Position numbers and translations under genes: made by a program. From an uncultured Candidatus Micrarchaeota archaeon (lineage in GTDB: Archaea > Micrarchaeota > Micrarchaeia > CAILAH01), in contig CAILAH010000038.1 of assembly GCA_903832205.1 (NCBI GenBank), positions 4,456 to 68,455 on the forward strand: 64,000 bases of DNA, in the 5' to 3' direction. The notes beneath the pieces are model-generated. The model was not told the DNA's origin, made no database searches, and saw only the letters and a list, made by a program, of their open reading frames with translations. This document shows positions 1 to 37,798 of the stretch, one piece after another; within the stretch, counting starts at the first letter, position 1; every line of letters begins with the position of its first letter.

Positions 1-254
1 AGGGCGGGGTTGATATGCTGAACGAGACCCAGCTCATTGAGGCCGGACATATGGTGGTTGTTGATGCCAATGGGATAATGACAATCACATCGCTTTCCGA
101 GCAGGACTGGGCATTGCAGGCCGCAGCATTTGATAGCATAATTATCCCTGGCGTCACAGATGATCAGGCGCCCGCAAGCCCCTGCGCCACAACAGCCCTG
201 CTATTATTATCTGGACTATTTCTTTTCGCTTTTGCACATCTGAAAAGAAGATAA
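1..254 (+). CDS. C-terminal fragment of a secreted/surface protein (5' end outside window) ending in a hydrophobic helix plus basic tail (…SPCATTALLLLSGLFLFAFAHLKRR)
   Basis: Open frame runs off the window start. The C-terminal tripartite tail resembles the tails of the Cys-rich family at 2253-3565. Confidence 0.4.
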   Translation, partial: GGVDMLNETQLIEAGHMVVVDANGIMTITSLSEQDWALQAAAFDSIIIPGVTDDQAPASPCATTALLLLSGLFLFAFAHLKRR

Positions 255-1112
255 TCAGAGCCCGCCCAGAAGATATGCAACCATTCCTAATGTGAGGGAA
301 AGCAGTGAGATTTTCTTGGCGGTTTCCTGGTCGTGGGGTGTGCCGAAGAATCGGACGGATGCGTAGAGGAGCCCGATTATGGAGCCGAGCGCGGGAATAA
401 GATAGAGATAGTTGCCCTGGAGCGGGGGCATGCTGAGGAATGGCCAGAGCGCAAGAAGCGATGCGGCAATGGTGAGCAATAGTGCCAGCACAAGGGACGG
501 GTTTTTTCCGATGAGGACGGGGAGCGTCACCGACCCACGCGCTTTCACATCGCCTTCAACGTCCTGTACCGTTTTTTGGATTTCCCTGGCCAGCCCGAAG
601 AGGAACGATGTGGCTACCACCACCATTGTGAGCGCGGAGATGGTGCCGCTCAATGCAACATCCGTGAATATGAATACAATCGCCATTGATGCCGCAATGA
701 TTGCATTGCCCAGGAGCGCCACATCCTTGAGCTTCCAGTCATATAATATGGAGAGGGAAGCAAACAGGAAAGCGATGTTGAGCGCATTAGTGCCCAAAGG
801 GACCGCAACAAGCACGCCCATTAAGAGCAAGGCAATACCGAGCCATTTCGCCTCCCACTCGCTTATCTCCCCCTTTACTATTGGCGTCTTCTTCTTGTTT
901 ATCCTGTCGCTCTCAGCATCAAAGTAATCATTGAGTGCAAATGCGCCCGCGGAAACTAAGAATGGGCAGAGTAAAAGAGAAACAAGTTGGGCATAAGTGA
1001 AAGAGAGGTGAAGAAGCACAATCGCGGTAATGACACCGAGCATTAGTATTACGGAATGCTCAATCCTGGTTAATTGTGCGATTGCTTTCAGGTTCATATG
1101 GATAATACTCAA
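255..1112 (-). CDS. UbiA-family prenyltransferase, 285 aa, polytopic membrane protein; possibly the archaeal DGGGP synthase
   Basis: Asp-rich motif ALNDYFDAESDRINKKKTPIV (NDxxDxxxD) within about 8 predicted TM helices. The DGGGPS call is an inference from the nearby GGGPS, GGR and UppS genes. Confidence 0.7.
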   Translation of the reverse strand: MSIIHMNLKAIAQLTRIEHSVILMLGVITAIVLLHLSFTYAQLVSLLLCPFLVSAGAFALNDYFDAESDRINKKKTPIVKGEISEWEAKWLGIALLLMGVLVAVPLGTNALNIAFLFASLSILYDWKLKDVALLGNAIIAASMAIVFIFTDVALSGTISALTMVVVATSFLFGLAREIQKTVQDVEGDVKARGSVTLPVLIGKNPSLVLALLLTIAASLLALWPFLSMPPLQGNYLYLIPALGSIIGLLYASVRFFGTPHDQETAKKISLLSLTLGMVAYLLGGL

Positions 1113-1128
1113 ATGGAAATATTAAAAA

Positions 1129-2217
1129 CTAGAATTCAAGGATGGACTTCTGCCCTTTCCCTTCCTCAAGATTCTCCACGCGTACCCCAATCCTCCTGAG
1201 CTCGGCGCTCGTGCCCGCGAGCAGCTCCCTATAGAGCGCCTCAACCGCAACATAGATGATCTTTGGGTCGGCAGTGGCGCGGGGAAGCTTGCGCGATTTG
1301 GAGTGTGGCTCCATATTCTCATCCACCGCGTTGATGCCCACAACGGAGCATACCTTCCCCTCCTCACTAAGCTGTGCGGCCACATCTTTTACAAGCGGCT
1401 CAACATTATTCATAATATAGGAGATGTCGCGCGAATCCTCCTTGAGCGTCCTAATCCTGCTGATTTGCTTCCTTTCCAGCTTCTGCTCAACGTTATCATC
1501 GCTCTCGCCGTGGGCTGCAAGCACGAGCCAGGCGCCGAATTTCTTACCGAACGTCTCAATCAGGAGAGCGGGCGAAACCTTCTGCAAATCCGCAACCTTA
1601 TAGACGCCCATCAAATCGAGCGCCTCCGTGGTCTTGGGCCCAATCCCGGGAATCTCAGAGACGGGGAGCGTGCGCAGGAATTTCTCAGAACCCTTCGGAA
1701 GGACTACAGTAAGCCCATCGGGCTTCTTCATCCCGCACGCTATCTTGGAGATAATCTTTGTGGCCCCAACCCCGATTGAGCAGGTGAGCCCCACATCCGC
1801 AAGCACCTCTTTCTTAATTTTCCTAGCCAATTTCTCAGCAAGGGCAAAATCACCCTTGCATCTCTCAGTGACGTCAATGAACGCCTCATCAATGCTGACC
1901 TGCTCGAACTTATCGGCATTCCTTATGAGCACTTCCATCACTTTCATTGAATATTCCTCATAAAGCTCATGCCGAACGGGAAGGAATGCAGAATCAACAC
2001 CTGCCAATCTCTTTTTCGCAAAAGCAATGGGAATGCCTGACTTGACGCCGAACTTGCGCGCAGTATAATTAGAGGTGGCAACCGCACCGCTTGATTCACT
2101 GCGGCCGGAGAACATGCAAACCACAACGGGCTTTCCCCTTAGCGAAGGGTCAAGCAGCTCCTCAACCTGCGCATAGAAGTAGTCCAGGTCCATGAGCATT
2201 ATTACCCGCTGCTGCAT
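1129..2217 (-). CDS. dinB: Y-family DNA polymerase IV (DinB/Dpo4-like)
   Basis: N-terminus MLMDLDYFYAQVEE… and SIDEAFIDVT are classic Y-family palm motifs. The 362 aa length also fits. Confidence 0.85.
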   Translation of the reverse strand: MQQRVIMLMDLDYFYAQVEELLDPSLRGKPVVVCMFSGRSESSGAVATSNYTARKFGVKSGIPIAFAKKRLAGVDSAFLPVRHELYEEYSMKVMEVLIRNADKFEQVSIDEAFIDVTERCKGDFALAEKLARKIKKEVLADVGLTCSIGVGATKIISKIACGMKKPDGLTVVLPKGSEKFLRTLPVSEIPGIGPKTTEALDLMGVYKVADLQKVSPALLIETFGKKFGAWLVLAAHGESDDNVEQKLERKQISRIRTLKEDSRDISYIMNNVEPLVKDVAAQLSEEGKVCSVVGINAVDENMEPHSKSRKLPRATADPKIIYVAVEALYRELLAGTSAELRRIGVRVENLEEGKGQKSILEF

Positions 2218-2252
2218 ACTCTCATATCCTGTTTTTCTTTTATAATACTTAC

Positions 2253-2729
2253 GTGAGAAGTGTTCTTATGAAACTCTGGATGCTTCTTCTTATACTGCTT
2301 GCCACGCCGCTGGCGTTTGCGGATTGTGTAACTACCTACGACTCCTGCACGGCTTCCTGCTGTACTAACGTGGACGGGCAAGTCGATTACTCGAGTGGCA
2401 GCCCTACCTGCTCCGGCTATGGGGCAGTGAGCAAGGACAACTATGACACCTGCATCAGTATGGAATGTGTCTCGCCACTATTGACCTGCGTCGGCAGCTA
2501 CAGCTGCGCTGCAAAGCACTCCTCATGCCAGAACAGCTGCACGGGCGCACCTGGAAGCGGAGTGGGTGACTGCTACGCAACCTGTGATTCAGAGGGCGCG
2601 CAGTGCGCGATTGACGAGATGGACTCAGGCAACAATAACCCGCCAAGCCCATGCTGCAACGGCATAATGCTCGTCGGCGCAATACCATTGCTGTTCCTCC
2701 TTGGATTGCACATAAATAACAAGAGATGA
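2253..2729 (+). CDS. Small Cys-rich secreted protein, family member A (signal peptide; about 18 Cys; C-terminal CC-NG + IPLLF helix + basic tail)
   Basis: Signal peptide MKLWMLLLILLATPLAFA, likely true start M6 at about 2268. Mature part is rich in C/S/T/G/D. C-terminus is …PPSPCCNGIMLVGAIPLLFLLGLHINNKR. Confidence 0.6.
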   Translation: MRSVLMKLWMLLLILLATPLAFADCVTTYDSCTASCCTNVDGQVDYSSGSPTCSGYGAVSKDNYDTCISMECVSPLLTCVGSYSCAAKHSSCQNSCTGAPGSGVGDCYATCDSEGAQCAIDEMDSGNNNPPSPCCNGIMLVGAIPLLFLLGLHINNKR

Positions 2730-3181
2730 TTGGGATGAAGTATGCATTATTTCTAATGCTTCTGGCACCGCTCTGCTTCGCAAGCTGCGGAACCGTATTT
2801 GACCAGTGCCAGTGGGACTGCTGCTCCTCAACGGGCAATACGCCCAGCGGCTCATTCAGCAGCGACACCTACTCCTGCTCTTTTGACACTGACTATATGC
2901 CATATGACTCCTGCGTAAGCACCACCTGCACTCCAAACTATCTGGACTGCAATGGTGCGCCATACAGCTGCAAATCGCAGCAGCAGAGCTGCATACAGAA
3001 ATGCTATGGAAGCAGCGATGAGTACTGCTTTGAGACCTGCGACAACAACGCAATAGACTGCATGGATGCGGGCGGCACGCCCAACCCTCCCAGCCCGGGA
3101 TGCTGCGGCGGGGTTGCGCTCCTTTTGGGCGTCCCGTTCCTGTTCGTTGCGGGCAGGCAATTTACAAAAAAGGTGAACTAA
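2726..3181 (+). CDS. Small Cys-rich secreted protein, family member B
   Basis: Signal peptide MKYALFLMLLAPLCFA. C-terminus is …PPSPGCCGGVALLLGVPFLFVAGRQFTKKVN. Start overlaps the stop of A (tandem, same strand). Confidence 0.6.
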   Translation: MIGMKYALFLMLLAPLCFASCGTVFDQCQWDCCSSTGNTPSGSFSSDTYSCSFDTDYMPYDSCVSTTCTPNYLDCNGAPYSCKSQQQSCIQKCYGSSDEYCFETCDNNAIDCMDAGGTPNPPSPGCCGGVALLLGVPFLFVAGRQFTKKVN

Positions 3182-3565
3182 ATGAAATGGGCTATATTAC
3201 TAATACTGTTGTTGGCTCCGCTGTGCTTTGCGGTGGAATATCCGAACCATTACTGCGGCCAGTATCTGACGTCGTGCGTAAAGCAGTGCTGCCCGAGCGT
3301 CCCCACAGGCAACTGGGACGAGGCACAGCAGGACTGCATCTATGACACCAATACCGTCTCTGATGAGCAGGCAATGCAGATCTGCGGCACCTGCGTGGAC
3401 GAATACGCACAGTGCGATGCGACCTACAACAGCGACGGCTCGCTGAGAGGCGGCTACACGCCGACAACCCCTTCATCCTCAAGCAGCGGCTGCTGCGGCG
3501 GATTAATCGCGCTCATTGCACTGCCCCTATTGTTTATAGCGGGAATGAAGCTTTCAAGGAAATAG
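3182..3565 (+). CDS. Small Cys-rich secreted protein, family member C
   Basis: Signal peptide MKWAILLILLLAPLCFA. C-terminus is …SSSSGCCGGLIALIALPLLFIAGMKLSRK. Abuts B. Confidence 0.6.
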   Translation: MKWAILLILLLAPLCFAVEYPNHYCGQYLTSCVKQCCPSVPTGNWDEAQQDCIYDTNTVSDEQAMQICGTCVDEYAQCDATYNSDGSLRGGYTPTTPSSSSSGCCGGLIALIALPLLFIAGMKLSRK

Positions 3566-7140: not shown

Positions 7141-9990
7141 ATGGGAAACAAGACAATATTCATCGTTATGATTTTGCTCTTTGCGAGCGCGGCTTTGGCG
7201 GCCGCACTCATCACAGTTCCGGCAAAGAACACCACAGTGTCAACCGTAAAGGTTAGCCCCGCCCCGCTCGTTTTCAACTATTCTGACAATGATGCAATAC
7301 CCTCATTGTATCTCAGCCTAGGCCCAACCACGCCGATTGCAAACAAGAATTTCTCGATAGTGGTCACGGCGACGGATGATAAGGGAGTCAGTGCGATAAG
7401 GCTGCTGCTCTCAAACGGATGGCAGAACTTCTCGTGCAGCAACCAACCAACCTGCATGAAGGAATTCTCTACATACGAGCAGAACATGGGCACATACTAT
7501 TACAAGGCAATGGTTATCGATAATGCACAGAAAGCTGCAGTGGGCTCAATCCCGATTGCGCTAACGCAGAAATGCCTGGAGAACTGGATGAAATACGGCA
7601 GCACCTGCCTGAACACCGACAAGCAGTACACTTCCTATTATGAGGCAAACGGCTGCGCAGTAACCACAACGCCCGCAGACAATGGGACTTATGTCTCATG
7701 CGACTACTGCACACCGAGCTGGCAGCCGCTGCAGAATCCGTGCACCATAAACGATTCGGCATTCACCTCCTACTATGATATATACACCTGCTTTGCGCAG
7801 ACAGGGCTTGTATCAGACAATAATGTCCCGGCCAATCAGTCAACATTCTGCGACTACTGCGTCACTGACATAAAGTCAACTTCATTAGCATGCACAGCCA
7901 ACGACACGCAGTACACGCACTTTTATGACACGAAAGATTGTTTCGGCATAACCGGATTGGTTGCAGACAAGGTCCCCGCGGACCAGCCGATGCCCTGCGA
8001 TTACTGCACGCCTGCACTGGTTGGGCACAATTCCACATGCGCAATTACAGACACTTACACTAAATCATACACAGATTCAAACACCTGCTTTTCGATAACA
8101 AACCTTTCTTCTGACAAGGTTCCTGTAAACGAGACTTTGGGCTGCGACTACTGCGCACCTAACTGGCAGCCGCAGTACACATCGTGCGTTAGCGGCAACA
8201 TGACCAAATATTACGTCGATGCGAACAATTGCTTTGCCATAACCAGTTTGCCATCGGACAACAACAAGCCAGCTAACGAGACAACGGGCTGCTCATCGGC
8301 AGGCCATCTTGAGCCATATATTGTTTTGCCGAATCAGTCAATATTGGTATCTGGCACGACCCTTGTGAACCAATCAAGAAATGTCACGGTAAGGACTGGA
8401 GTCAAATGCGTCGGCGGCCCCTGCAGCAATGTGACTGCGGCGCTTGACCCGCAGTTACAGATTGTTCCGAGAAAATTAAGAACATCGGTGATTACTGCCA
8501 AGCCCGTGGTTATCGACCAGCCGGTGATTACAAACCCGCAGGTGATTATCCTCTCGGCCAACCTGATAAAGAACGTCAATGAAACGCCGAGAATGGTCAT
8601 TGTAGAATTCAAGGATGACGATTTCTCGCTGGATGACAAGGTGCAGGGAAAGAAAGTCAAGGACAACCAGGACAGGACAATAAAAACGCTGAACAGCGAC
8701 GGGGAGAATTTCAAGGTAAAGTACAAGTATTCGCTGGTCAATGCAATGGCTGGTGAGATAAACTCAAAGGGATTGGATAAGCTCCTTAAGGACCCATCCG
8801 TTTCAGCGATTTATGAGGACTTCGTAGGCCAGGGCTCGGTAGCGCAGGGAAAGGAATCGCTCGGGCTCGACCATGTGAATAATTTCGTAATTAACGGGAA
8901 GAACCTCACTGGAAAGAACTATTCCATCTGCCTGATTGATTCGGGAGTGAATTACAACCACGAATCACTGGGCGGCGGCGGATACCCAAACGCAAAAGTC
9001 ATTGGCGGCTGGAATTTCGTGCACAATATCAGCGACGTTTATGACCTGAACGGCCACGGCACCAAGATGTCCGGAATACTTGCAGGCAACGGCACGGTAA
9101 GGGGCGTGGCTCCCGATGCGACTTTGGTAGAGGCCGTAGTATTGAACGAAACCAACTGGTATGTCGGCTCAAAGGCATATGCGGCAATGGACTGGTGCTA
9201 TGCAAACAGGGTACAATACAACATTGCGGCAGTCAGCATGAGCTTTGGGGATTCCATAGAAAATAATCTGACAACCTGCCCGTCGTACTTCAATGCCCCG
9301 CTAAGAAACATGAACCTTGCGGGAATGACTTTGGCCGCAGCTTCGGGCAATGAATGGTTTAACCACGGTATTGCCTATCCTTCGTGCTCGCCCTATGTGA
9401 TTGGCGTGGGCTCCATGGATGACGGCAGGTATTTCGGCACAGGCCTCAACGACACGATAACGAACTTCACGAACATCGGCTTTGGAATGAACTTCCTGCT
9501 TGCTCCCGGAAGGGGCATAGGCACCACTGACAGGGATACGGGGACGTCCTCATGCACGGGAACATCCTGCTCAACGCCATTCGTAGCTGCGGGCGGTTTG
9601 CTGATGAACCAATATTTGACACTGAAATACAACAGGACCATTAACAACCCGAAGATGTTCAACCTGCTCAACTCAACAGGAAGGCAGATCCCGATGGAGG
9701 ACAAGGCCAGGTACAACGGGACATTCACGTTGCCCTATTTTGACGAGGCGCTGATGAGGTTTGAGGTTCCGCAGCATAAGGCGATTGTGTCTATGGTAAA
9801 CACATCAAAGCCGTTCTACACATTGCAGCAGAACCCTGCATCCTGCGGCAATATGGCTGAAAACCAGGTTTGTGAAACCCAATGGAACGTCACGGCAACT
9901 GGGATTGTAGGCACCTATGAGTTCTACACGATATACAATTCGGGCAGCTCAGCGGCGAACACGACCAAGTTCAACGTGACCATTATCTAA
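7141..9990 (+). CDS. Subtilisin-like serine protease (peptidase S8), secreted, with five N-terminal tandem 49-aa Cys-containing repeats
   Basis: Signal/TM MGNKTIFIVMILLFASAALAAA. Repeats begin CDYC(T/A)P…SYYD…C F(A/G/S)ITxL…D(N)KVPAN at 7573-8289. Catalytic motifs are D in CLIDSGVNYNHE, H in LNGHGTKMSGI and S in GTSCSTPFVAAG. Many N-x-S/T sequons. Confidence 0.85.
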   Translation: MGNKTIFIVMILLFASAALAAALITVPAKNTTVSTVKVSPAPLVFNYSDNDAIPSLYLSLGPTTPIANKNFSIVVTATDDKGVSAIRLLLSNGWQNFSCSNQPTCMKEFSTYEQNMGTYYYKAMVIDNAQKAAVGSIPIALTQKCLENWMKYGSTCLNTDKQYTSYYEANGCAVTTTPADNGTYVSCDYCTPSWQPLQNPCTINDSAFTSYYDIYTCFAQTGLVSDNNVPANQSTFCDYCVTDIKSTSLACTANDTQYTHFYDTKDCFGITGLVADKVPADQPMPCDYCTPALVGHNSTCAITDTYTKSYTDSNTCFSITNLSSDKVPVNETLGCDYCAPNWQPQYTSCVSGNMTKYYVDANNCFAITSLPSDNNKPANETTGCSSAGHLEPYIVLPNQSILVSGTTLVNQSRNVTVRTGVKCVGGPCSNVTAALDPQLQIVPRKLRTSVITAKPVVIDQPVITNPQVIILSANLIKNVNETPRMVIVEFKDDDFSLDDKVQGKKVKDNQDRTIKTLNSDGENFKVKYKYSLVNAMAGEINSKGLDKLLKDPSVSAIYEDFVGQGSVAQGKESLGLDHVNNFVINGKNLTGKNYSICLIDSGVNYNHESLGGGGYPNAKVIGGWNFVHNISDVYDLNGHGTKMSGILAGNGTVRGVAPDATLVEAVVLNETNWYVGSKAYAAMDWCYANRVQYNIAAVSMSFGDSIENNLTTCPSYFNAPLRNMNLAGMTLAAASGNEWFNHGIAYPSCSPYVIGVGSMDDGRYFGTGLNDTITNFTNIGFGMNFLLAPGRGIGTTDRDTGTSSCTGTSCSTPFVAAGGLLMNQYLTLKYNRTINNPKMFNLLNSTGRQIPMEDKARYNGTFTLPYFDEALMRFEVPQHKAIVSMVNTSKPFYTLQQNPASCGNMAENQVCETQWNVTATGIVGTYEFYTIYNSGSSAANTTKFNVTII

Positions 9991-10052: not shown

Positions 10053-10871
10053 CTAGCGTGACAGCGCCTTTAAAGTCACTTCGAATTCCAGCGTCTTGCC
10101 TGCAAGCGGACCGTTTTCGTCCAGCACTACTGTTTCGTTGTCGGCAGAGGCGACCTTCACAAGGCTCACGGCCCCCGAAGTTGGGTCGGCGATATTATAC
10201 GTGCTGCCCGTTACCACATCAAGCCTGATTAGCAGGGTATCGTTGCTTACGCTCACGACTTCCATCGGGAGGCCGGATTGCGTAAACTTCTGGCCAACGT
10301 CCATTGAAAACATCAGGGTAACGGTGTCGTTGGTGAAATTGTATATGGAAAGGCTGCCCACTGCAGCCGGCAGTGCCTCGCCCGCCTTGATTGTAATGTT
10401 GTCCTTTTCCAAATCGCTCCTGGCGACGTCCTGGAAGCGGGATATGTTATAGTAGCGCGGCACGCTGGCCATCTTCGCAGGGTCGGAGAGGCCGTAGCCG
10501 TCTATCGGCGCTACTGAGAAGTTCTTCGACTCGCCCACTTTCATCCCCACAACACCGTTTACAAATCCCGGAATAATACCATGGTTGGTAAGCAGCGCGA
10601 ATGTAAGGGGCTGGTAGCCCGCATTTGCATTGTAAATTCCCGCGCTCATTGCCACATCGGGCAGGGAAGTGTCCAGCACCTGCCCGTCCACGCGGAGGGT
10701 GTAATCCACCGTGACGTTGTCACCGTACTGTGCGGTGAGTGCGGCGGGCTGCGTTGAATTCTGCGTGGAATTTTGCAGCGGAGTTGTTCCCTGGTTGGTG
10801 CATCCAAAAAGGAGGATGCCGAACATCAGGAATGCGGACAACAGCAGGAATTTTTTCATAAAGATATTCAT
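10053..10871 (-). CDS. FKBP-type peptidyl-prolyl cis-trans isomerase, secreted/lipoprotein-like
   Basis: Signal peptide ending LLFGC. FKBP motifs YTLRVDGQVLDTS, IIPGFVNGVVGMKVGESKNFSVAPIDGYG and C-terminal GPLAGKTLEFEVTLKAL. Confidence 0.7.
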   Translation of the reverse strand: MNIFMKKFLLLSAFLMFGILLFGCTNQGTTPLQNSTQNSTQPAALTAQYGDNVTVDYTLRVDGQVLDTSLPDVAMSAGIYNANAGYQPLTFALLTNHGIIPGFVNGVVGMKVGESKNFSVAPIDGYGLSDPAKMASVPRYYNISRFQDVARSDLEKDNITIKAGEALPAAVGSLSIYNFTNDTVTLMFSMDVGQKFTQSGLPMEVVSVSNDTLLIRLDVVTGSTYNIADPTSGAVSLVKVASADNETVVLDENGPLAGKTLEFEVTLKALSR

Positions 10872-10909: not shown

Positions 10910-12421
10910 TCAGTCAATCATTATTTCCCTGCCGGTTTTGGTTTCCTTGACATTGATGAGCAGTGCCAGGGCAGCGCCAATGGCCACGATTATGGAAGAA
11001 ATCACGAAGACCTCACGGTAGGAAAGTATGTCCGCGCGCAATATCATGAGAGGGACAACCTGGCTGAGTACGACAGGGTTGAGGCTGTTTATCACGCTAT
11101 TCTGCGCAATTGCCAGCACGTTTGCGTTTATTGCGCCATTAAGTATGGATGCAAATATGGCAATCCCAAATGCGCCGGCGATGTTCCGCGTCAGCGCCAG
11201 CACGGATGAGGCTTCGCCGACCTCGTCATCCGGCACGGTGGATGCGATGATCGAGGTGCGCTGGGACATCGCGAAGCCCATGCTGAACGCCATGACGAAT
11301 ATGGGTATCATAAAATCCAACGCGGTTGCGCGCGCGTCCATCGCAAACGAGAACATGTAAATGCCGATGGCAGCGCCAAAAGTGCTTATTGCAATTACCA
11401 CGCCGGGCCTGACCCTGCCGATGAGCTGCGCGCCAAGCGGTGCGGCAAGCACCATGCCGAATGCCATGGGCATGAAAAGATAGCCAGTTTCAGTTGATGT
11501 GTAGCCGAGGAAAGATTGGACGAATACAGGCAGGATAAACAGGCAGCCCATCATTCCCATGAACACGACGAAATTATTCGCAAGCGTGGCCGTAAATGCG
11601 CTATGGCTGAAGAATTTGAAATCAACCAGCGGCTCAGGATGCTTCGAGTCTATGAGATAGAACAGATAGCCGAATAGGATTACCGCCGTATAGCAGAGCA
11701 GGCTGTAGGGCGATGTCCAGCCCCATTCCAGCCCCTTATCAAGCACGAGGACAAGGCAGGAAAGCGCAACACCAAGCGTAATCGCGCCCCAAATATCAAA
11801 CTTCTCGGTCTTCTTTTCGGATACGGATTCATTGATGAACAGCATTGCCATGGCCATGCCAAGAAGGCCCACGGGGAGATTAATCAGGAACACCGAGCGC
11901 CAGCCGAACGTGTCAACGAGCGGGCCGCCAATCAACGGGCCGAAAACTGCCGCAGCTGCAAAAGATACTGACCAAATGCCAAGCGCTTCCGCACGCTCCT
12001 TTCCGTTCCTGAACGTCATCACGATAATCGCCATGGCGGTGGGATAATCGGCCGAGCTGGCAATGGCCTGTATTATGCGGAAAACAATCATGGATGACAG
12101 GTCCCAAGACAGGCCCGCAAGCACCGAGCCGATAATGAATATGGTGAAACCTGCCATATACACCTTTTTCCGGCCTATTGTATCTCCAAGCTTGCCCCAC
12201 ACCGGCACGAAAACCGCATTCGCCAGTATGTAGGCGGTGGCAATCCAGCCTGCTTCGGAAATCGTAATGGAAAAATCGCCCATTATTTTGGGGAGCGCAA
12301 GATTCACGATGGTCTGGTCAAGGCGCCCCAAAAAAGTCCCGACTATGACGGTGAGCAGCACGAGCCACTTCAGGGTATCAGCTTTGCTCGGCATCTTTAT
12401 CCCGTTGATTTGTAAACCCAC
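10910..12421 (-). CDS. emrB: MFS drug:H+ antiporter (DHA2/EmrB-QacA family, 14 TM)
   Basis: 503 aa, 14 hydrophobic segments. N-terminal motif LGRLDQTIVNLALPKIMGDF typical of EmrB. Confidence 0.8.
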   Translation of the reverse strand: MGLQINGIKMPSKADTLKWLVLLTVIVGTFLGRLDQTIVNLALPKIMGDFSITISEAGWIATAYILANAVFVPVWGKLGDTIGRKKVYMAGFTIFIIGSVLAGLSWDLSSMIVFRIIQAIASSADYPTAMAIIVMTFRNGKERAEALGIWSVSFAAAAVFGPLIGGPLVDTFGWRSVFLINLPVGLLGMAMAMLFINESVSEKKTEKFDIWGAITLGVALSCLVLVLDKGLEWGWTSPYSLLCYTAVILFGYLFYLIDSKHPEPLVDFKFFSHSAFTATLANNFVVFMGMMGCLFILPVFVQSFLGYTSTETGYLFMPMAFGMVLAAPLGAQLIGRVRPGVVIAISTFGAAIGIYMFSFAMDARATALDFMIPIFVMAFSMGFAMSQRTSIIASTVPDDEVGEASSVLALTRNIAGAFGIAIFASILNGAINANVLAIAQNSVINSLNPVVLSQVVPLMILRADILSYREVFVISSIIVAIGAALALLINVKETKTGREIMID

Positions 12422-13116
12422 ATCTTGGCCGACATGCCGTTTTTAATATCGGGATTGCCCAGGCTGTCAAAGTTGGCCCGCACCTCAAATTCCTGTTCCT
12501 GGCGCTTGTCCGATATGCTGAAAACAATATCCTGCGACCTGGGAGTGGTTCCGACTGATTCGACCGTGCCCTCAAATTGCTTTGAGCCGAACGCATCCAC
12601 AGTGAAAACAACGCGCTGCCCCGGCTTGATATCTGCAAGCCCCTTGTCTTCCGCTATCCTGCCGATTACGCGCAGCTCGCGGGGGTCAAACATCTTTACA
12701 AGCACGTCCTGCGGACCGACAATCTGCCCTGGCGTTTTCTTCACGTATGTAATAATGCCATAGCTCTTGGCCTCAACGTAATTGTCGCCGATCTTGACCA
12801 GCTTTTGGCCCGGCGCCACCTCATCGCCCTCATCAACATAGATATTATCAAGTGTCCCGGATGTTTGCGCGCTGAGCGATATGATGGGCGCGCTTATCTC
12901 GGCTTTTTCAAGGTATATCTTCTGCTGCATGTCCTGCAGGTAGAGCATCCCGCCAATCAGCGCTATAATCAGTATAACCACTAGGGCGTCGAGCAGCCGC
13001 ACGTTCTGATTTCCCATCAGGTTCCTTAGCGACCCTATTCCCAAGCCTTTTTTCGGCTCATCATGCTTTTCAAGCGCTGCCTCAATTTTCTCAAGTTTTG
13101 CCCTATGCTCCACCAT
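12397..13116 (-). CDS. emrA: HlyD/EmrA-family membrane fusion protein
   Basis: Single N-terminal TM, coiled-coil, then a biotinyl-lipoyl-like/β-barrel region. Overlaps emrB start, so translationally coupled. Confidence 0.7.
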   Translation of the reverse strand: MVEHRAKLEKIEAALEKHDEPKKGLGIGSLRNLMGNQNVRLLDALVVILIIALIGGMLYLQDMQQKIYLEKAEISAPIISLSAQTSGTLDNIYVDEGDEVAPGQKLVKIGDNYVEAKSYGIITYVKKTPGQIVGPQDVLVKMFDPRELRVIGRIAEDKGLADIKPGQRVVFTVDAFGSKQFEGTVESVGTTPRSQDIVFSISDKRQEQEFEVRANFDSLGNPDIKNGMSAKMWVYKSTG

Positions 13117-13561
13117 ATTTCTCCCTCAGTATCTTTTCCATAATTGCGTTCACATTCTCAAGCGAATTGCAAAGGTAATCCAATTCATAATCGCTAAGCC
13201 CGGAAATGTTTTTGCGGATTGCTTCCCGGACATTGCGCTTCAGCTGCTTTGTGAAGGCCCTGCCTTTCGGCGTTATCTCAATCATAACGACCCTGTGGTC
13301 CTTCTGGCCCTGCATGTGCCTGACCTTGCCTTCACGCATAAGCTTGCCGACGATTGCAGTCATATTCGGCTTTGAGCGCTGCAGCTGATAGCTCAGCTCG
13401 GTCATGGTCCTTGGCTTGCGCATGAGCATCCAAAGCACCCAGTATTGCGGGTGCAGCGGTGGCGGTTTCATCCCCTGGCTGCCCTTGCATCCCATGAGGC
13501 GGAATACCCTTACCAGTGAGATGAGCCCCTCCGCCACACGCTCGTGTTTAGTCTTTTTCAT
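13103..13561 (-). CDS. MarR-family transcriptional regulator
   Basis: 152 aa wHTH protein. MarR-like recognition helix region PRTMTELSYQLQRSKPNMTAIVGKLMREGKV. First gene of the marR-emrA-emrB operon. Confidence 0.7.
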   Translation of the reverse strand: MKKTKHERVAEGLISLVRVFRLMGCKGSQGMKPPPLHPQYWVLWMLMRKPRTMTELSYQLQRSKPNMTAIVGKLMREGKVRHMQGQKDHRVVMIEITPKGRAFTKQLKRNVREAIRKNISGLSDYELDYLCNSLENVNAIMEKILREKYGGA

Positions 13562-13670: not shown

Positions 13671-13686
13671 CTTTCCCTTTTTATTT
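13671..13686 (+). promoter_or_regulatory. Putative promoter (BRE/TATA-like CTTTCCCTTTTTATTT) 22-37 nt upstream of Cys-rich gene D; an identical 16-mer recurs at 14192-14207 upstream of gene E
   Basis: Exact 16-nt duplication at equivalent distance from both ATGs. Confidence 0.45.
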
Positions 13687-13707: not shown

Positions 13708-14190
13708 ATGAGAAAAATGCTCCTTCTTACAATGCTATTGTTTCTTGTTTCTCTTATGCCCCTTGTGTTTTCAGCAACAGAGGTCCATACTGCGTGCTTT
13801 GACGATTACGCATCATGCGCATATTCCTGCTGTGAATCGGCTGGAGGCACATTCAATCGGGAGCAGGGGGAATGCGAATGGAATACTCAGGGCAACATTG
13901 GTAAGTATGATGTGTGTGTGAGCAAGGGATGCACACCAACGCTATTAAAATGCACTAATGCAACTGAGGCGATTATGCAGAAGCATGAGGCCTGCCAGGG
14001 CACATGCGCCTCAGCCGATGAAAGCGCGGCAGGCAGCTGCTACAAAGCGTGCGATGATGAAGCACTGAAGGCACAAACAATCGGAGTTATAACCAAGGCA
14101 GGGAACTGCCCCGGTGCGCTTATACTGCTGTCAGCAGTGCCTTTGCTGTTCCTCACCGCGGGCATGCTGTTCGCAAAAATAGATGCCTAA
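13708..14190 (+). CDS. Small Cys-rich secreted protein, family member D
   Basis: Signal peptide MRKMLLLTMLLFLVSLMPLVFSA. C-terminus is …GNCPGALILLSAVPLLFLTAGMLFAKIDA. Confidence 0.6.
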   Translation: MRKMLLLTMLLFLVSLMPLVFSATEVHTACFDDYASCAYSCCESAGGTFNREQGECEWNTQGNIGKYDVCVSKGCTPTLLKCTNATEAIMQKHEACQGTCASADESAAGSCYKACDDEALKAQTIGVITKAGNCPGALILLSAVPLLFLTAGMLFAKIDA

Positions 14191-14227
14191 CCTTTCCCTT
14201 TTTATTTCTTGCCCCCAAATCATAACC

Positions 14228-14704
14228 ATGAGAAAGATACTTTTGCTTATGGCGCTGCTCCTTGCATTCGGGGCGGCATTTGCGCTTGGTGCAGGCTGCT
14301 CGGAGAAGGCATACGTGGCGGCGTGCTCAGGCTGCTCCTTTGATGCGAACGGCAGGATGGACCAGTCCTGCTCAAGTGCGCAGAGGGCAGGAGGGATTGC
14401 ATGCGTAAGCGCTTCCTATCCGATAATGAGCGCCAAGTATTCCGCGGGCCAATGTCCGGGCGTGGATGCGTGCGCATCAGAGCTATCTTCATGCGTCTCT
14501 TCGGTCTCCTCAGGAAATGACAAGGCGAACTGTGAGGAAGGCAGCGCACATACCTGTTATGCGGCTTCAGACTCGTGCATACAGACCGCTGCAAAGAACT
14601 GCGGCGAGTTTGAGGGGCAGACGTGCTCCGGCTCAAGCGGCCTGATCCTTGCGGTTCTCGGGATAGTGGGAATGGCGTCCTACATTAGGAGCAGGAAAAA
14701 CTAA
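14228..14704 (+). CDS. Small Cys-rich secreted protein, family member E (start moved to internal Met at 14228)
   Basis: Signal peptide MRKILLLMALLLAFGAAFALGAGC. C-terminus is …CSGSSGLILAVLGIVGMASYIRSRKN. The TATA-like 16-mer lies 21 nt upstream of this ATG. Confidence 0.55.
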   Translation: MRKILLLMALLLAFGAAFALGAGCSEKAYVAACSGCSFDANGRMDQSCSSAQRAGGIACVSASYPIMSAKYSAGQCPGVDACASELSSCVSSVSSGNDKANCEEGSAHTCYAASDSCIQTAAKNCGEFEGQTCSGSSGLILAVLGIVGMASYIRSRKN

Positions 14705-20929: not shown

Positions 20930-21049
20930 TGCGGCTGCCGAGATTTGAACTCGGGTCTCAGGCTTGCCTCGATTTCTTAGTGCAGGTTCCTTGCTGCGCA
21001 AAGAAAGTGCTTGGAAGGCCAGTGTCCTACCAGGCTAGACTACAGCCGC
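20930..21049 (-). tRNA. tRNA-Gly(UCC) with one intron at about 37/38 (47 nt; about 20965-21011)
   Basis: Hand-folded. Exon 1 GCGGCUGUAGUCUAGCCUGGUAGGACACUGGCCUUCCA. Exon 2 AGCCUGAGACCCGAGUUCAAAUCUCGGCAGCCGCA. One A·U mismatch in the anticodon stem. Spliced length 73 nt. Confidence 0.6.
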
Positions 21050-24564: not shown

Positions 24565-25512
24565 CTACTTTTGCTTGACAGGAAGCCCCAATAGCATATC
24601 ACAGCCGGCAGGCTGCGCTATCTGTCCCGAGCCGACAAGCTTTACGTATCCCAGGAACGGGAGAGTGAACCAGGACTTGCCGAGCACCTGCGATGAGTTT
24701 GCCAGTGAATTGGTGCGTGTAAGGGACGTATCATACGCCTGCACGTCAAACATCGGGTTATTGTCGCCCTTTATCATATAGTACGTCTCGTTATCGACGC
24801 TAATCCTAACTACCGCCCTGTGGATGATGTCGCCAATTGCTGCGAACAGGTCATCCCTCTTGGGCCTGTAAACCACAATATCGCTGGAGCGATTGGTTGC
24901 ATCAATGTACTTGCCCCCAATCGTAACACCTTCAGTGCAAATCGCCTGGCCATCCTGGCCTGCAAGCTTCACATCGCACACTGAACACTTGTACTGGAGC
25001 ACCTGCCCCAGCGCCTCCTGTCCGGTCTTGGGGTCGATTGAGCAGGGCCTCACAAACAGGTTCTCATCAAGGCACTTGCCGCAGATGTAATGCTCCTCGC
25101 CGTTCGCGATGAGCGTGCTGAACTGCTCTTTTGTAAGTGTAACCTCTTGCGTGGAAACTGGCGCGTTCTGCAAAAAGACCACATCGCCCCTCTGCAGCGT
25201 GTTGAGCATGCTGCAGGAGACCACCGCATTGAACGGCGATGATGTCCCGAAAATGATTGATGCCGCAAACAAAACAGCGAGCGCAACTGCAATGGCAACC
25301 ACAATCTCCTTGAGCTCGTGCTTCAGCCCTTTTTCCTTGGCGCTCTGTATGCTTTCCGCAACCACTCCCACCATGAACAGGAGCGCAGCAGAGACCGCGA
25401 GCATATCAATCCTGGTGAGTATGAAAACCACCGCAAGCGCAACCGCGGCGATGTAGAGCCACTTGCCCTTGTTTATCTTCGTGAGAAGTTCCATGTCTTT
25501 TTCATTCGCCAT
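24565..25512 (-). CDS. Signal peptidase I (S26) with Cys-rich C-terminal extension
   Basis: N-terminal TM helices, then VVSCSMLNTLQRGDVVFL matching the LepB SGSMxPTLxxGD catalytic Ser box. C-terminal part has CGKC…CSVCD. Confidence 0.6.
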   Translation of the reverse strand: MANEKDMELLTKINKGKWLYIAAVALAVVFILTRIDMLAVSAALLFMVGVVAESIQSAKEKGLKHELKEIVVAIAVALAVLFAASIIFGTSSPFNAVVSCSMLNTLQRGDVVFLQNAPVSTQEVTLTKEQFSTLIANGEEHYICGKCLDENLFVRPCSIDPKTGQEALGQVLQYKCSVCDVKLAGQDGQAICTEGVTIGGKYIDATNRSSDIVVYRPKRDDLFAAIGDIIHRAVVRISVDNETYYMIKGDNNPMFDVQAYDTSLTRTNSLANSSQVLGKSWFTLPFLGYVKLVGSGQIAQPAGCDMLLGLPVKQK

Positions 25513-29301: not shown

Positions 29302-30528
29302 ATGGCAGAATCCTCAGTTACCATTGTAAATTCCGGCACTGGCCTTACACAGCGCCAGATCAGCCAGGAGATTATATCCAGACTTAAGATGATGGTTAGC
29401 GAGGCAAAGAAGCTGCTCAGGCAGAATAACATACGCGGCGCGGAGAGAAGGGTACACGATGCGCTTAACCTTGACCCGAACAATCCACAGGCCACATCGT
29501 TATTGATTAAGCTTTATTCGGGCACAGGCCGCGCATTCAAGGCCAGGAAGCTGTATGAGAGCGCAATTGAGCGCGGCATCGCATCAGGGCATTCGCCCGT
29601 CCCTATTTATGAGGCGTACCTGCGTGCGAACAAATCCACCCTCGCCCACGAGCTGCATCTGTTTTCAATTGAGAAAGGCGTGGCCCCGGCCGATGCCAAC
29701 TCTGCGCTCATTGCGGCATATTGCAAGTGCGGCCTTGTTGAGGAGGCACGTTCCATATTTGACACTGCATTGCAGGCAAAAGAGGTCAACCACTTCGCAT
29801 TCCTTTCCTTGATTCTGGGCTATAGCAGAAAGGATATGCCCGCCACTGTCATTAAGATATACGGGCTTGCAGAAGCCAATAACATGTGCAATGATGACAT
29901 AAACGATGCGATGATAATCACATTCGCAAAGGTGAACGACGCAGAATCCGCAGTCAGGCTGTTCAGCGGGTCACACAGGGGAATCATCCGCTCCCATGAG
30001 ACATTCGCCTCATTAATGCAGATGTATGCAAGATTGGGTAACGTGCCCAAGGCACGCGAGATATTTGACCTGTCAGTTGAGAAGGGATATGCGGATAACG
30101 TGACTTACGGCATCATGATTGACATCTACTGCACCGGAAAAGATACTGGGAATGTAAAAGGGCTGCAGCAAAAAGCGCTTGGCGCAAACCAGCTTGATAA
30201 GAGGGCCTACGCGTCGCTCATCCACTATTACTGCTCAATCGGCGATATTGATGAGGCGCGCAAGCTCTTTGATGACGGAGCACCGAGAAGGAAGGTTGAC
30301 AGCATGGACTGCACCACGCTTATGCACGTCTACCACGTCAAGTGGGAAATAGTAAATGCAAGGGAAGTGTATGAAATCGCAATCAAGAATGGCTTCTGCG
30401 ACTCCCGCTGCCATGACTATATGTATAATATCTATGAGATGCGGGGAGACCACAAGTCGGCAAAGGAAGTCTATGAGCAGTGGCTCAGGATTATGATAGA
30501 ACGGAGAAATTCCAGGCCCCATCCCTAG
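29302..30528 (+). CDS. PPR/TPR-like helical-repeat protein (about 10 degenerate 35-aa repeats)
   Basis: Repeated units ALIAAYCKCGLVEEARSIFDTA, TFASLMQMYARLGNVPKAREIFDL, YASLIHYYCSIGDIDEARKLFDDG and YGIMIDIYCTGKD are strikingly PPR-like. Confidence 0.6.
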   Translation: MAESSVTIVNSGTGLTQRQISQEIISRLKMMVSEAKKLLRQNNIRGAERRVHDALNLDPNNPQATSLLIKLYSGTGRAFKARKLYESAIERGIASGHSPVPIYEAYLRANKSTLAHELHLFSIEKGVAPADANSALIAAYCKCGLVEEARSIFDTALQAKEVNHFAFLSLILGYSRKDMPATVIKIYGLAEANNMCNDDINDAMIITFAKVNDAESAVRLFSGSHRGIIRSHETFASLMQMYARLGNVPKAREIFDLSVEKGYADNVTYGIMIDIYCTGKDTGNVKGLQQKALGANQLDKRAYASLIHYYCSIGDIDEARKLFDDGAPRRKVDSMDCTTLMHVYHVKWEIVNAREVYEIAIKNGFCDSRCHDYMYNIYEMRGDHKSAKEVYEQWLRIMIERRNSRPHP

Positions 30529-34467: not shown

Positions 34468-36051
34468 ATGGATTCCGGCAAGGACGGCAAGAACAAGCGG
34501 CAGGAAGCGATTGACAGGGTTATTGATGAGGTTGTGAAATCAGAGAAGGCCGATGTTGAGAAATACAAGAGGCAATACAGCAAGGAATACGGGTTGGCTA
34601 TCTTCATCAGGAATTCAGAGCTTGTTGGCAGGGCAAGGGAGCGCAATCTCGAGCAGCTCATCCCGTTTTTGCGCAAGAGGCCCATGAGAAGCATTAGCGG
34701 CATTGTGAATCTTGCCATAATGACTGTGAGCGACTGCCCGCACGGCAGGTGCACCTACTGCCCCAAGGGTGATGGGACGCCGAATTCATATACGGGGTTT
34801 GAGCCCGCGACAATGCGCGGCATCCAGAACAAGTATAATGCCTACGACCAGATAATTTCGCGCGTAACACAGCTCACTGAGATTGGGCACCCTACCGATA
34901 AGTGCGAGGTGATTGTGCAGGGCGGCACGTTCCCCGCGCAGGAGCTTTCCTATCAGCAGCAGTTCATTCTCGACATGTACAACGCACTAAACGGAATTAA
35001 ATCAGCAACAATCCAGGAAGCCATAACAAAAAACGAGAGCGCCCCGCACAGGTGCATCGGATTGACAATTGAGACAAGGCCCGACTGGTGCTTTGAGAAG
35101 CATGTTGACGGAATGCTCGCGTTTGGAGCAACGCGTGTTGAGATTGGCGTACAGACGCTTAAGCGCGATGTTCTTGAAAAGACAAAAAGGGGGCATACGC
35201 TTGAGGACGTATGGAAATCAACACAGATAGCGAGGGATTCGCTGCTCAAGGTATGCTATCACATGATGCCCGGGCTCTATGCATCGCCGAAAGAGGACGT
35301 GGACATGTTCAGGCAGCTTTTTGAGGATGCGCACTATAAGCCGGACATGCTTAAGATCTATCCGTTCCTCGTGATGAAAGGCACGGAGATTTACAAGGAA
35401 TGGGAGGACGGGAAAATCAAGCCCTACACAAGCGAGGAAGCTGCCGATGTAATCGCGGATGCCTACAGGCACATCCCCTATTACGCCAGGGTTATGCGCG
35501 TCCAAAGGGATATTCCGGCATACCTTATTGATGACGGCGTAAAGAAGAGCAACCTGCGCGAGGCAGTTGAGATACGGCTTAGGAAAAACAAGATGCCGAT
35601 TGAAGAGATGCGCTACAGGGAAGTGGGCCATAACGTGTTGAAGGGCAAAGCGAAAATGGAGGACTTAAATCCCGAACTGCTGGTGCGCAAGTATGATGCG
35701 TCCGAAGGCGAGGAATATTTCATCAGCTTTGAGGATAAGAAAACCAATCTGCTTTTTGGATTCCTGCGCCTGCGCAATCCGGCACATCCGCATCGCAAGG
35801 AGATAACCAGTAAATCCGCAGGCATAAGGGAGCTTCATGTTTACGGCGAGCAATTGCCCCTCAGCAAGCGCAGCGACACCTCACCGCAGCATACTGGTCT
35901 CGGTAAAAGCCTGATGGACGAGGCGGAGAGGATTGCAAAAGAGGAATTCGACTCCAACAAGATCCTTGTAATTAGCGGAGTTGGTGTGAGGAATTACTAC
36001 AGAAAACTGGGATACGAATTGGACGGGCCATATATGTCAAAATTAATCTAA
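34468..36051 (+). CDS. elp3: Elp3-like radical-SAM/GNAT tRNA uridine-34 acetyltransferase
   Basis: Radical-SAM cluster CPHGRCTYCP and a C-terminal GNAT domain (LHVYGEQLPL…HTGLGKSLMDEAERIA). 527 aa. Confidence 0.8.
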   Translation: MDSGKDGKNKRQEAIDRVIDEVVKSEKADVEKYKRQYSKEYGLAIFIRNSELVGRARERNLEQLIPFLRKRPMRSISGIVNLAIMTVSDCPHGRCTYCPKGDGTPNSYTGFEPATMRGIQNKYNAYDQIISRVTQLTEIGHPTDKCEVIVQGGTFPAQELSYQQQFILDMYNALNGIKSATIQEAITKNESAPHRCIGLTIETRPDWCFEKHVDGMLAFGATRVEIGVQTLKRDVLEKTKRGHTLEDVWKSTQIARDSLLKVCYHMMPGLYASPKEDVDMFRQLFEDAHYKPDMLKIYPFLVMKGTEIYKEWEDGKIKPYTSEEAADVIADAYRHIPYYARVMRVQRDIPAYLIDDGVKKSNLREAVEIRLRKNKMPIEEMRYREVGHNVLKGKAKMEDLNPELLVRKYDASEGEEYFISFEDKKTNLLFGFLRLRNPAHPHRKEITSKSAGIRELHVYGEQLPLSKRSDTSPQHTGLGKSLMDEAERIAKEEFDSNKILVISGVGVRNYYRKLGYELDGPYMSKLI

Positions 36052-37742: not shown

Positions 37743-37798
37743 TGCAATTGGCGAAATTCCAGTTTTTAAACGTTATGAAAAGGGAATAAACGAAAAAA

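Follow-up and report, generated by a model that had tools for sequence, protein, structure and literature searches.

Small cysteine-rich secreted proteins of Micrarchaeota end in a candidate cysteine-type C-terminal sorting signal and show gene linkage to a PrsW-family protease

We analyzed a 64,000-nucleotide stretch of DNA from an uncultured Candidatus Micrarchaeota archaeon (assembly GCA_903832205.1, contig CAILAH010000038.1), hereafter called the window, which contains five genes (A to E) for small proteins rich in cysteine (Cys). As judged from their sequences, these proteins belong to a previously undescribed family of secreted proteins that is so far found in Micrarchaeota only. Members of the family end in a tail composed of a short Cys motif, usually CC-G-x, a hydrophobic segment and a few basic residues. 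On balance, we lean toward the view that this tripartite tail is a C-terminal sorting signal of the cysteine type, and a variant that occurs in a new lineage with a new motif variant and a new carrier family. A clade of PrsW-family intramembrane proteases is the best candidate for the enzyme that would remove the tail, a proposal supported by gene linkage.

The breadth of the family was revealed solely by an exhaustive profile search seeded with proteins A–D. Among 1.84 billion representative proteins, this search recovered 38 at the cut-off of E ≤ 1e-3, 10 of which scored at E ≤ 1e-10, and thereby added ~35 clusters to the family. A sequence-only reading of the window, made earlier by a model, had asked whether the family might be confined to this genome; the search shows that it is not. 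All members with an organism name attached belong to Micrarchaeota or Micrarchaeia, and the relatives of gene A lie in metagenome-assembled genomes (MAGs) named Candidatus Micrarchaeota or Micrarchaeia. Proteins identical to those of the window recur on several ENA metagenome contigs. A word-indexed homology search returned protein A alone when queried with A and 7 proteins when queried with a 35-sequence family alignment, and a locus search with a three-sequence alignment reached two genomes only. None of A–E matches a Pfam or NCBIfam model, even at E ≤ 10, which agrees with the earlier description of an uncharacterized surface-protein family. Our survey of literature that links Micrarchaeota or DPANN archaea with archaeosortases, CAAX processing or Cys-rich surface proteins found nothing relevant.

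Members of the family share a common architecture of 93–161 amino acids in which a signal peptide, the ectodomain and a linker precede the CC-G-x motif, a short uncharged segment and terminal K/R residues; the exceptions are fragments and one doubtful match. The ectodomain follows a conserved Cys pattern (C-x6-C-x3-CC-x4-GG, then successive C-x3-C and C-x6-C spacings), and the linker is of low complexity (S 19%, G 18%, A 10%, P 8%, T 8%). Structure prediction with AlphaFold2 on the 35-sequence alignment, a check that the sequence-only reading had recommended, returned a confident model (pLDDT 83.7 overall and ~95 at residues 20–120) composed of four helices with a small hairpin, a disordered linker (residues 120–131) and a terminal helix. 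Comparison of the predicted ectodomain with PDB structures and known folds found no relative. The model thus predicts, with confidence, a new disulfide-rich four-helix fold. A role for this ectodomain in a surface coat or in host contact of these episymbionts is a guess.

Genes A, B and C are, as first described, abutting open reading frames on the plus strand: the stop codon of A and the start codon of B overlap in the ATGA at 2726–2729, and the ATG of C at 3182 abuts the TAA of B. A most likely begins at the ATG at 2268 rather than at the GTG at 2253, because public gene callers start it there, yielding a 153-amino-acid protein whose identical copies are annotated on 6 contigs, and because a TATA-like box lies ~25 nt upstream. 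Each of the three N termini reads MK followed by a hydrophobic run that ends in AFA or CFA, as expected of the signal peptides proposed previously. Each protein also carries its early motif (DSCTASCC, DQCQWDCC and TSCVKQCC), and the three tails had been quoted correctly. The paralogy of these proteins was upheld by blastp (A–B, E 2.9e-24; A–D, 3.6e-19; B–D, 4.4e-16); C is weak in pairwise comparison and reaches 70.8 bits against the family profile. C represents a short subfamily that lacks the middle helices and includes P0024, P0025, P0026, P0028, P0032 and P0038 (designations with P refer to proteins and those with L to related loci). This C-type subfamily is old, and the A-B-C array is therefore no recent duplication.

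Two additional members had been placed downstream of the array. D is indeed a full-length member, with a single Cys in its NCPG tail motif. E proved to be a distant relative, which aligns with the family over its C-terminal half (hhalign probability 94%), reads CSGSSG at its tail, lacks the P[LF]LF motif and has a 57%-identical ortholog with the tail ECPGSSSG... in a Micrarchaeia MAG. The sequences thus mark A, B, C and D as clear paralogs and E as a distant relative. The third addition, a fragment at the start of the window said to carry the same tail, did not hold up: it is the end of a FecR-domain protein whose SPCATT...HLKRR terminus reaches 3.7 bits with the tail profile and 15.9 bits, under the cut-off, with IPTL-CTERM. 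A, with 16 Cys, and B, with 17, fall within the 14–18 per protein counted earlier, whereas C has 11 and D has 13. Between signal peptide and tail, all five proteins contain an even number of Cys (14 in A, 14 in B, 8 in C, 12 in D and 12 in E), and the tail Cys are therefore spare; 7, 7, 4 and 6 disulfides are predicted for A, B, C and D.

The tail is tripartite and conserved, as had been proposed. Its last Cys is invariant (38 of 38 members), 33 members carry CC, and the following residue is G in 28 (GP in 10, GS in 9 and GG in 5). An uncharged segment starts directly after this Cys; it has a median length of 15 residues and spans 14–18 residues in members outside the window lineage, with one to three K/R in the final 2–8 residues. 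The motif reads CC-NG in A, CC-GG in B and C, C-PG in D and C-SG in E, and the uncharged segments of the window tails are longer (16–22 residues). A proline in the middle of the helix, seen as P[LF]LF in the window copies, had been taken as part of the family motif. It is found as PLRF in the closest relative, P0005, and in looser P-L forms in P0010, P0015, L018, L028, L030 and L042. Most relatives lack P[LF]LF, which makes it specific to a subgroup, unlike the family-wide CC-G-x. The latter is conserved among proteins that are 30% identical despite linkers of variable length. For comparison, C-terminal anchors without Cys in the same lineage (a NosD-like protein in L016 and TSP3-like proteins in L010 and L014) contain ~23 hydrophobic residues.

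Within the window the CC-G tail is confined to family members, whereas in the related loci examined it also terminates unrelated ectodomains. A VWA-domain protein in L042 (PF13519, 58.9 bits) ends in the CC tail GGFCCPLFALLPLALVAGVGAKYAA. In L016, a 65-amino-acid protein with no other domain has a mature part of 19 acidic and Tyr-rich residues followed by GCCCGP...KKE. L018 encodes a different Cys-rich protein with the tail ACCGSLIFILAPLALGVFKR, and L019 a 265-amino-acid Cys-rich protein with the tail GCSS.... Weaker cases, in which a single Cys precedes the helix, are a transglutaminase-core protein in L013 and the FecR protein of the window.

The arrangement of the tail had been called unrecognized. 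It is in fact the design of a class of Cys-type signals known since 2023 (10.1101/2023.06.07.544157), and experiment has since lent support to one of them (PMC11980579). Haft's definition of that class calls for a short motif in which a Cys is invariant, a helix that begins directly after the motif, and a basic end, all of which we find in the family tails. Four such signals, MYXO-, JDVT-, Synerg- and CGP-CTERM, in which an invariant-Cys motif abuts the helix and is followed by basic residues, have all been connected, by in silico analysis, with glutamic intramembrane proteases of the CPBP/Rce1-like type (10.1101/2023.06.07.544157). Cys-dependent cleavage of MYXO-CTERM by the myxosortase MrtX was demonstrated experimentally by co-expression in E. 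coli (PMC11980579). The NCBIfam model most often matched by the tails is CGP-CTERM (TIGR04288, curated cut-off 21 bits), to which 4 of 34 isolated tails show similarity (best E 1.7e-4). With this model, none of the whole window proteins matches, D alone among the isolated window tails scores (13.1 bits), and the best full-length relative, P0030, reaches 17.0 bits, both below the cut-off. CGP-CTERM requires an invariant C-G-P, which the family does not share (C-G in 28 and C-G-P in 10 of 38). No tail reached threshold with PGF-, PEF-, PEP-, VPXXXP- or GlyGly-type models. The window proteins gave no hit with the PGF, PEF or VPXXXP models, to which the 34 tails showed two sub-threshold similarities, one to PGF_CTERM (E 0.02) and one to VPxxxP (E 0.052). 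These results sustain the earlier statement that the motif is not PGF, PEF or VPXXXP. The suggestion of a sorting or lipidation signal of the family's own was right in spirit, but its architecture was already known and the likely class of enzyme differs from that proposed.

For a signal of the Cys type, the enzyme to be expected is not the archaeosortase, exosortase or rhombosortase that had been suggested but a glutamic intramembrane protease akin to Rce1, CPBP or PrsW. Domain scans of the window proteins detected no CPBP, PrsW, archaeosortase or rhomboid gene, in accord with the earlier conclusion that the processing enzyme is not encoded in the window. In L010, a DUF2207 gene and then a gene for a 512-amino-acid PrsW-family protease come after an ortholog of gene C. 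A search with this protease retrieved ~90 clusters that are 44–63% identical over their full length and, save three truncated sequences, 476–533 amino acids long; beyond this clade the score falls sharply to E 1e-8. Its named members come from Candidatus Micrarchaeota, Micrarchaeia, Bilamarchaeum and ainarchaeum. The proteins, ~500 amino acids in length, combine an immunoglobulin-like ectodomain with a PrsW/APH-1-like membrane core that contains the PrsW domain (NF033739/PF13367) and its catalytic motifs, with EExxK, His411 and H448/H451/N452 invariant in the clade. NCBIfam classes PrsW as a glutamic-type intramembrane protease, the mechanistic class of the myxosortases.

Linkage was evaluated in PrsW-centered loci that had been fetched blind to the family (L014, L016, L018 and 51 metagenome loci); clustering of their PrsW sequences at 85% identity left 32 independent Micrarchaeota-clade loci. 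In 9 of the 32, a gene no more than 2 kb from PrsW encodes a protein with a signal peptide and a CC tail; the figure is 5 of 13 when the count is restricted to loci that show 3 kb or more of the ±2 kb neighborhood. Farther out, ~146 kb of flanking sequence contains 2 CC-tail genes (binomial P = 0.0034). The layout varies by locus, the CC-tail gene being either immediately downstream of PrsW or divergently oriented upstream at 95 bp to 2 kb, and in one case (L042) it encodes the VWA-domain protein.

Two additional features of the PrsW loci deserve mention. At the start of its last helix (residues 469–481 of P0048), the PrsW clade contains an invariant Y-C-C followed by x-L-I-P-L-F-D-Y-G-G. The resemblance of this Y-C-C...L-I-P-L-F to the CC...P[LF]LF tails of the window may reflect substrate mimicry, self-processing or coincidence. 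A DUF2207 membrane protein is encoded beside PrsW in two distant genomes (L010 1206–3017, plus strand; L018 11554–13368, minus strand) and displays CC-LP or IC-LP directly before its first internal transmembrane helix, comparable to the tail of P0032 (ECCLPISIL...).

Together, these data suggest a pathway of four steps. Family members would be exported by the Sec machinery, and their N-terminal signal peptides, recognizable in the sequences, would be removed by signal peptidase I; the enzyme encoded in the window, which contains SxSMxxTLxxGD and GDNN motifs, is likely to do so for A–E. The C-terminal helix would then hold the protein transiently in the membrane with its basic end inside. By analogy with CAAX processing by Rce1 and with MYXO-CTERM, and with the lipobox lipoproteins and the lipidation enzyme AliA reported for DPANN archaea (PMC12462473) as a precedent, the juxtamembrane Cys would be lipidated at the outer face of the membrane, after which a glutamic-type intramembrane protease, putatively the Micrarchaeota-specific PrsW encoded outside the window, would cut off the helix to leave a lipid-anchored surface protein. 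It is tempting to speculate that Micrarchaeota possess a sorting system of their own, in which PrsW acts as a "sortase" that removes the CC-G-x signal from lipid-modified proteins, and that the four-helix proteins, which occur as several diverged copies in each genome and as five in the window, are major lipid-anchored surface molecules that may mediate host contact. This complete scheme is offered as a tentative one, with considerably less assurance than the assignment of the tail as a signal.

Several points weigh against our interpretation of the tail and of its enzyme. Tail cleavage and Cys lipidation are inferred, and the surface location of the members is predicted. No tail reaches the cut-off of any curated CTERM model, and the basic cluster, in many cases a single K/R or a pair, is weaker than the Arg-rich clusters that described signals carry. 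Moreover, the 16–22 uncharged residues of the window tails suffice to cross the membrane and could do so as stable anchors. The main rival explanation is that the tail is a plain type I stop-transfer anchor that is never removed, with CC serving in an intermolecular disulfide, in metal binding at the membrane surface or in a vicinal disulfide. This explanation is reasonably likely, above all for the longer tails of the window, and for the family at large we regard it as a serious, if doubtful, possibility. It is further favored by the existence of ordinary C-terminal anchors in the same lineage, by the lack of a processing enzyme encoded in the window and by the FecR and transglutaminase tails, which have just a Cys in common with those of the family. 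A plain anchor does not fit easily with the relatives, most of which have spans of 14–16 residues, including G-[PSG], that are short for a stable helix and shorter than the ~23 residues of anchors without Cys. Nor does it readily account for the retention of CC-G-x behind variable, disordered linkers, for the presence of the tail on the VWA protein and the 65-amino-acid protein, or for the genomic linkage to an intramembrane protease.

With regard to the enzyme, 6 of the 9 PrsW neighbors are C-type family members, so the linkage may be partly inherited synteny; identities of 36–55% between the PrsW proteins of positive loci argue against inherited synteny as the explanation for all of it. In the window, L003 and L013, no PrsW gene is located near the family genes. 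The PrsW protein P0048 occurs on contigs from ENA samples ERZ1426812 and ERZ1426824, which belong to the sample series of the window's genes; P0048 may, but need not, derive from the genome of the window. Finally, the known proteases of Cys signals are CPBP proteins (PF02517), not PrsW, and at least one Micrarchaeia genome, a complete one, also encodes a CPBP, 8 kb from its PrsW gene.

The latter observations raise the alternative that the tail is a Cys-type signal but that its enzyme is CPBP/Rce1-like, as in a diverged CGP-CTERM system served by an archaeomyxosortase resembling MrtA. CGP-CTERM is the best-matching model, 10 of the 38 tails read C-G-P, and CPBP enzymes serve each of the four Cys signals described by Haft (10.1101/2023.06.07.544157). 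However, the CPBP of the complete Micrarchaeia genome falls far below every myxosortase model (26 bits for Mrt_core with a cut-off of 100; 50 for MmRce1 with a cut-off of 425; no match to NF040590), and no CPBP gene lies beside CC-tail genes in the loci examined, whereas PrsW does. We consider this alternative unlikely. Still less credible, in our judgment highly improbable, is the suggestion of the sequence-only reading that an archaeosortase, exosortase or rhombosortase paralog recognizes a novel motif in these proteins and processes them. The tripartite architecture that prompted it is common to all such systems, and the FecR fragment shows the sub-threshold similarity to IPTL-CTERM noted above. 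Against this stand the failure of any tail to reach threshold with the PGF, PEF, PEP, VPXXXP or GlyGly models and the nature of the defining residue, a Cys, which is the hallmark of the class processed by CPBP enzymes. In addition, neither an archaeosortase nor a rhomboid gene appears in the window or among the gene tables of ~70 related loci; full genomes were not searched.

The coordinates of the genes and of the elements that surround them are listed in Table 1.

Table 1. Features of the window that pertain to the A–E family and its neighborhood
Feature	Position	Strand	Length	Description
FecR fragment	1–254	+	336 amino acids (whole protein)	3′ end of gene for FecR-domain protein (PF04773; layout from another contig)
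FecR fragment tail	183–251	+		SP-C-ATT-ALLLLSGLFLFAFA-HLKRR; Cys, helix and basic residues, without CC-G motif
UbiA	255–1112	-		two genes 5′ of A, with the Dpo4 gene between
DinB/Dpo4-type polymerase	1129–2217	-		between UbiA and A
TATA-like box	2236–2245	+		TTTTATAATA (TTTATAAT); ~25 nt 5′ of ATG 2268; read from sequence
Gene A	2268–2729	+	153 amino acids	open reading frame; alternative GTG start at 2253; family profile 116.7 bits; signal peptide MKLWMLLLILLATPLAFA; 14-Cys ectodomain
Gene A tail	2652–2726	+		CC-NG-IMLVGAIPLLFLLGL-HINNKR
Gene B	2726–3181	+	151 amino acids	family profile 111.8 bits; blastp with A, E 2.9e-24; 14-Cys ectodomain
Gene B tail	3101–3178	+		CC-GG-VALLLGVPFLFVAG-RQFTKKVN
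Gene C	3182–3565	+	127 amino acids	C-type subfamily, without middle helices; family profile 70.8 bits; 8-Cys ectodomain
Gene C tail	3491–3562	+		CC-GG-LIALIALPLLFIAG-MKLSRK
15-mer, first copy	13672–13686	+		TTTCCCTTTTTATTT; 21 nt 5′ of D ATG; read from sequence
Gene D	13708–14190	+	160 amino acids	full-length member; family profile 121.2 bits
Gene D tail	14107–14187	+		single Cys; N-C-PG-ALILLSAVPLLFLTAGMLFA-KIDA
15-mer, second copy	14190–14204	+		identical to first copy; 5′ of E
Gene E	14228–14704	+	158 amino acids	distant relative; start ATG 14228; 12-Cys ectodomain
Gene E tail	14624–14701	+		C-SGSSG-LILAVLGIVGMASYI-RSRKN; without P[LF]LF
Archaeal signal peptidase I	24565–25512	-		TIGR02228, 42.8 bits, E 4.7e-11 (cut-off 51.85)

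The TATA-like box upstream of A is likely the promoter of an A-B-C operon and, given archaeal promoter architecture, the transcript is likely leaderless or near-leaderless. The two copies of the 15-mer, situated 21–24 nt from the ATGs of D and E, have the sequence of a duplicated TATA-type promoter, which would imply separate leaderless transcripts for D and E.

The remaining gene content of the window is archaeal, comprising a ribosomal protein operon (50–55 kb), L40e, a DGGGP-synthase-like UbiA, geranylgeranyl reductase, SecD/F, LonB and signal peptidase I. We considered whether UbiA might act as a Cys prenyltransferase for the tails. The protein scores as a housekeeping enzyme of the DGGGP-synthase type and its adjacency is seen among close relatives only, and for these reasons a functional link was rejected. 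UbiA adjoins a family gene in L003, and the DinB/Dpo4-type polymerase adjoins one in L007. Such conservation of neighbors across diverged relatives suggests that the family locus is old and positionally stable. L003, from a Micrarchaeia relative, also encodes, 2–3 kb from the family gene, a 393-amino-acid membrane protein with a thioredoxin fold (12083–13495, minus strand; weak match to TIGR00411) and a glutaredoxin, which could form a disulfide-handling module for Cys-rich exported proteins.

Additional genes of the window merit brief description. An FKBP-type peptidyl-prolyl isomerase (10053–10871, minus strand; PF00254) begins MKKFLLLSAFLMFGILLFGC, a lipobox-like N terminus, and the organism therefore probably also makes classical N-terminal lipoproteins. 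A 949-amino-acid secreted subtilase (7141–9990, plus strand; Peptidase_S8 with an I9 inhibitor domain) has an N-terminal signal and no C-terminal anchor. The region 36001–38000 is an island of 40% GC, compared with ~51% elsewhere, that overlaps an open reading frame of 564 amino acids with no Pfam match (36048–37742, minus strand); it may be foreign DNA. Rfam detects a tRNA spanning 120 nt (20930–21049, minus strand; 54.5 bits) where ARAGORN finds none, probably an intron-containing archaeal tRNA. A 408-amino-acid protein (29302–30528, plus strand) matches PPR models (PF01535 at 82.6 bits, PPR_2 and PPR_1) as well as TPR models. PPR proteins are mostly eukaryotic, and the occurrence of one in a Micrarchaeota-like genome is therefore unusual.

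Attachment to a host cell is the way of life of DPANN archaea such as the tiny, symbiotic Micrarchaeota and, to our knowledge, almost nothing is known of how these archaea build and anchor their surface proteins. If CC-G-x is a sorting and lipidation signal, it provides a simple sequence tag with which to list the surface proteome of the phylum, and a second lineage of archaea would then have sorting signals of the Cys type. PrsW is otherwise known for the regulated proteolysis of an anti-sigma factor, and our survey of the literature on PrsW and archaeal sorting signals found no sorting role for any PrsW. Were the linked PrsW to process the tails, the protease family would gain its first housekeeping role in sorting.

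The candidate enzyme resembles Bacillus PrsW, the site-1 protease of RsiW (NF033739, PF13367), in its PrsW domain and intact EExxK, H and HxxxN motifs. It differs in its scores of 42–53 bits, compared with a cut-off of 225, and in its extra N-terminal helix and β-sandwich ectodomain; its named hits are Micrarchaeota and close relatives.

Among described signals, CGP-CTERM of the Thermococcales, processed by MrtA (NF040590), shares with the family tail an archaeal origin, an invariant Cys followed by Gly (often Pro) that abuts a short helix, a basic end and a Ser/Thr/Gly-rich upstream region; tails of family relatives are ~18–21 residues long. In contrast, the family motif is usually CC-G-[P/S/G/A], its basic cluster is K-rich and weak, the window tails measure 23–27 residues with a mid-helix P[LF]L, and the organisms are DPANN Micrarchaeota. 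The carriers also differ in size (93–161 amino acids in the family and a mean of 583 for CGP-CTERM), as does the linked protease, which is of the PrsW type here and belongs to the MrtA subfamily of CPBP there. MYXO-CTERM of Myxococcota, processed by MrtX, is likewise tripartite, frequently contains a second Cys (GCGC there, CC here), is presumed to be lipidated, as is the family tail, and undergoes Cys-dependent cleavage by a glutamic-type intramembrane protease of the CPBP family (PMC11980579). It is distinguished by its bacterial origin, type II secretion to the outer membrane, a longer signal and no detectable sequence match to the family tails. Synerg-CTERM, processed by MrtS, is a short Cys signal with a conserved Pro in a Leu-rich helix, reminiscent of P[LF]L in the window tails and some relatives, but it is bacterial and its Synergist_CTERM model is matched by 1 of 34 tails (E 2.3). 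PGF-CTERM, processed by ArtA in Haloferax, also provides archaeal surface proteins with a C-terminal lipid-linked anchor once the terminal helix is removed; the family has neither a PGF motif nor a threshold match, and a different class of enzyme would be involved. By analogy, then, the family tails would operate as CGP-CTERM or MYXO-CTERM do while belonging to no curated model. What is new here is the lineage, the motif variant, the carrier family and, possibly, the protease family employed for sorting.

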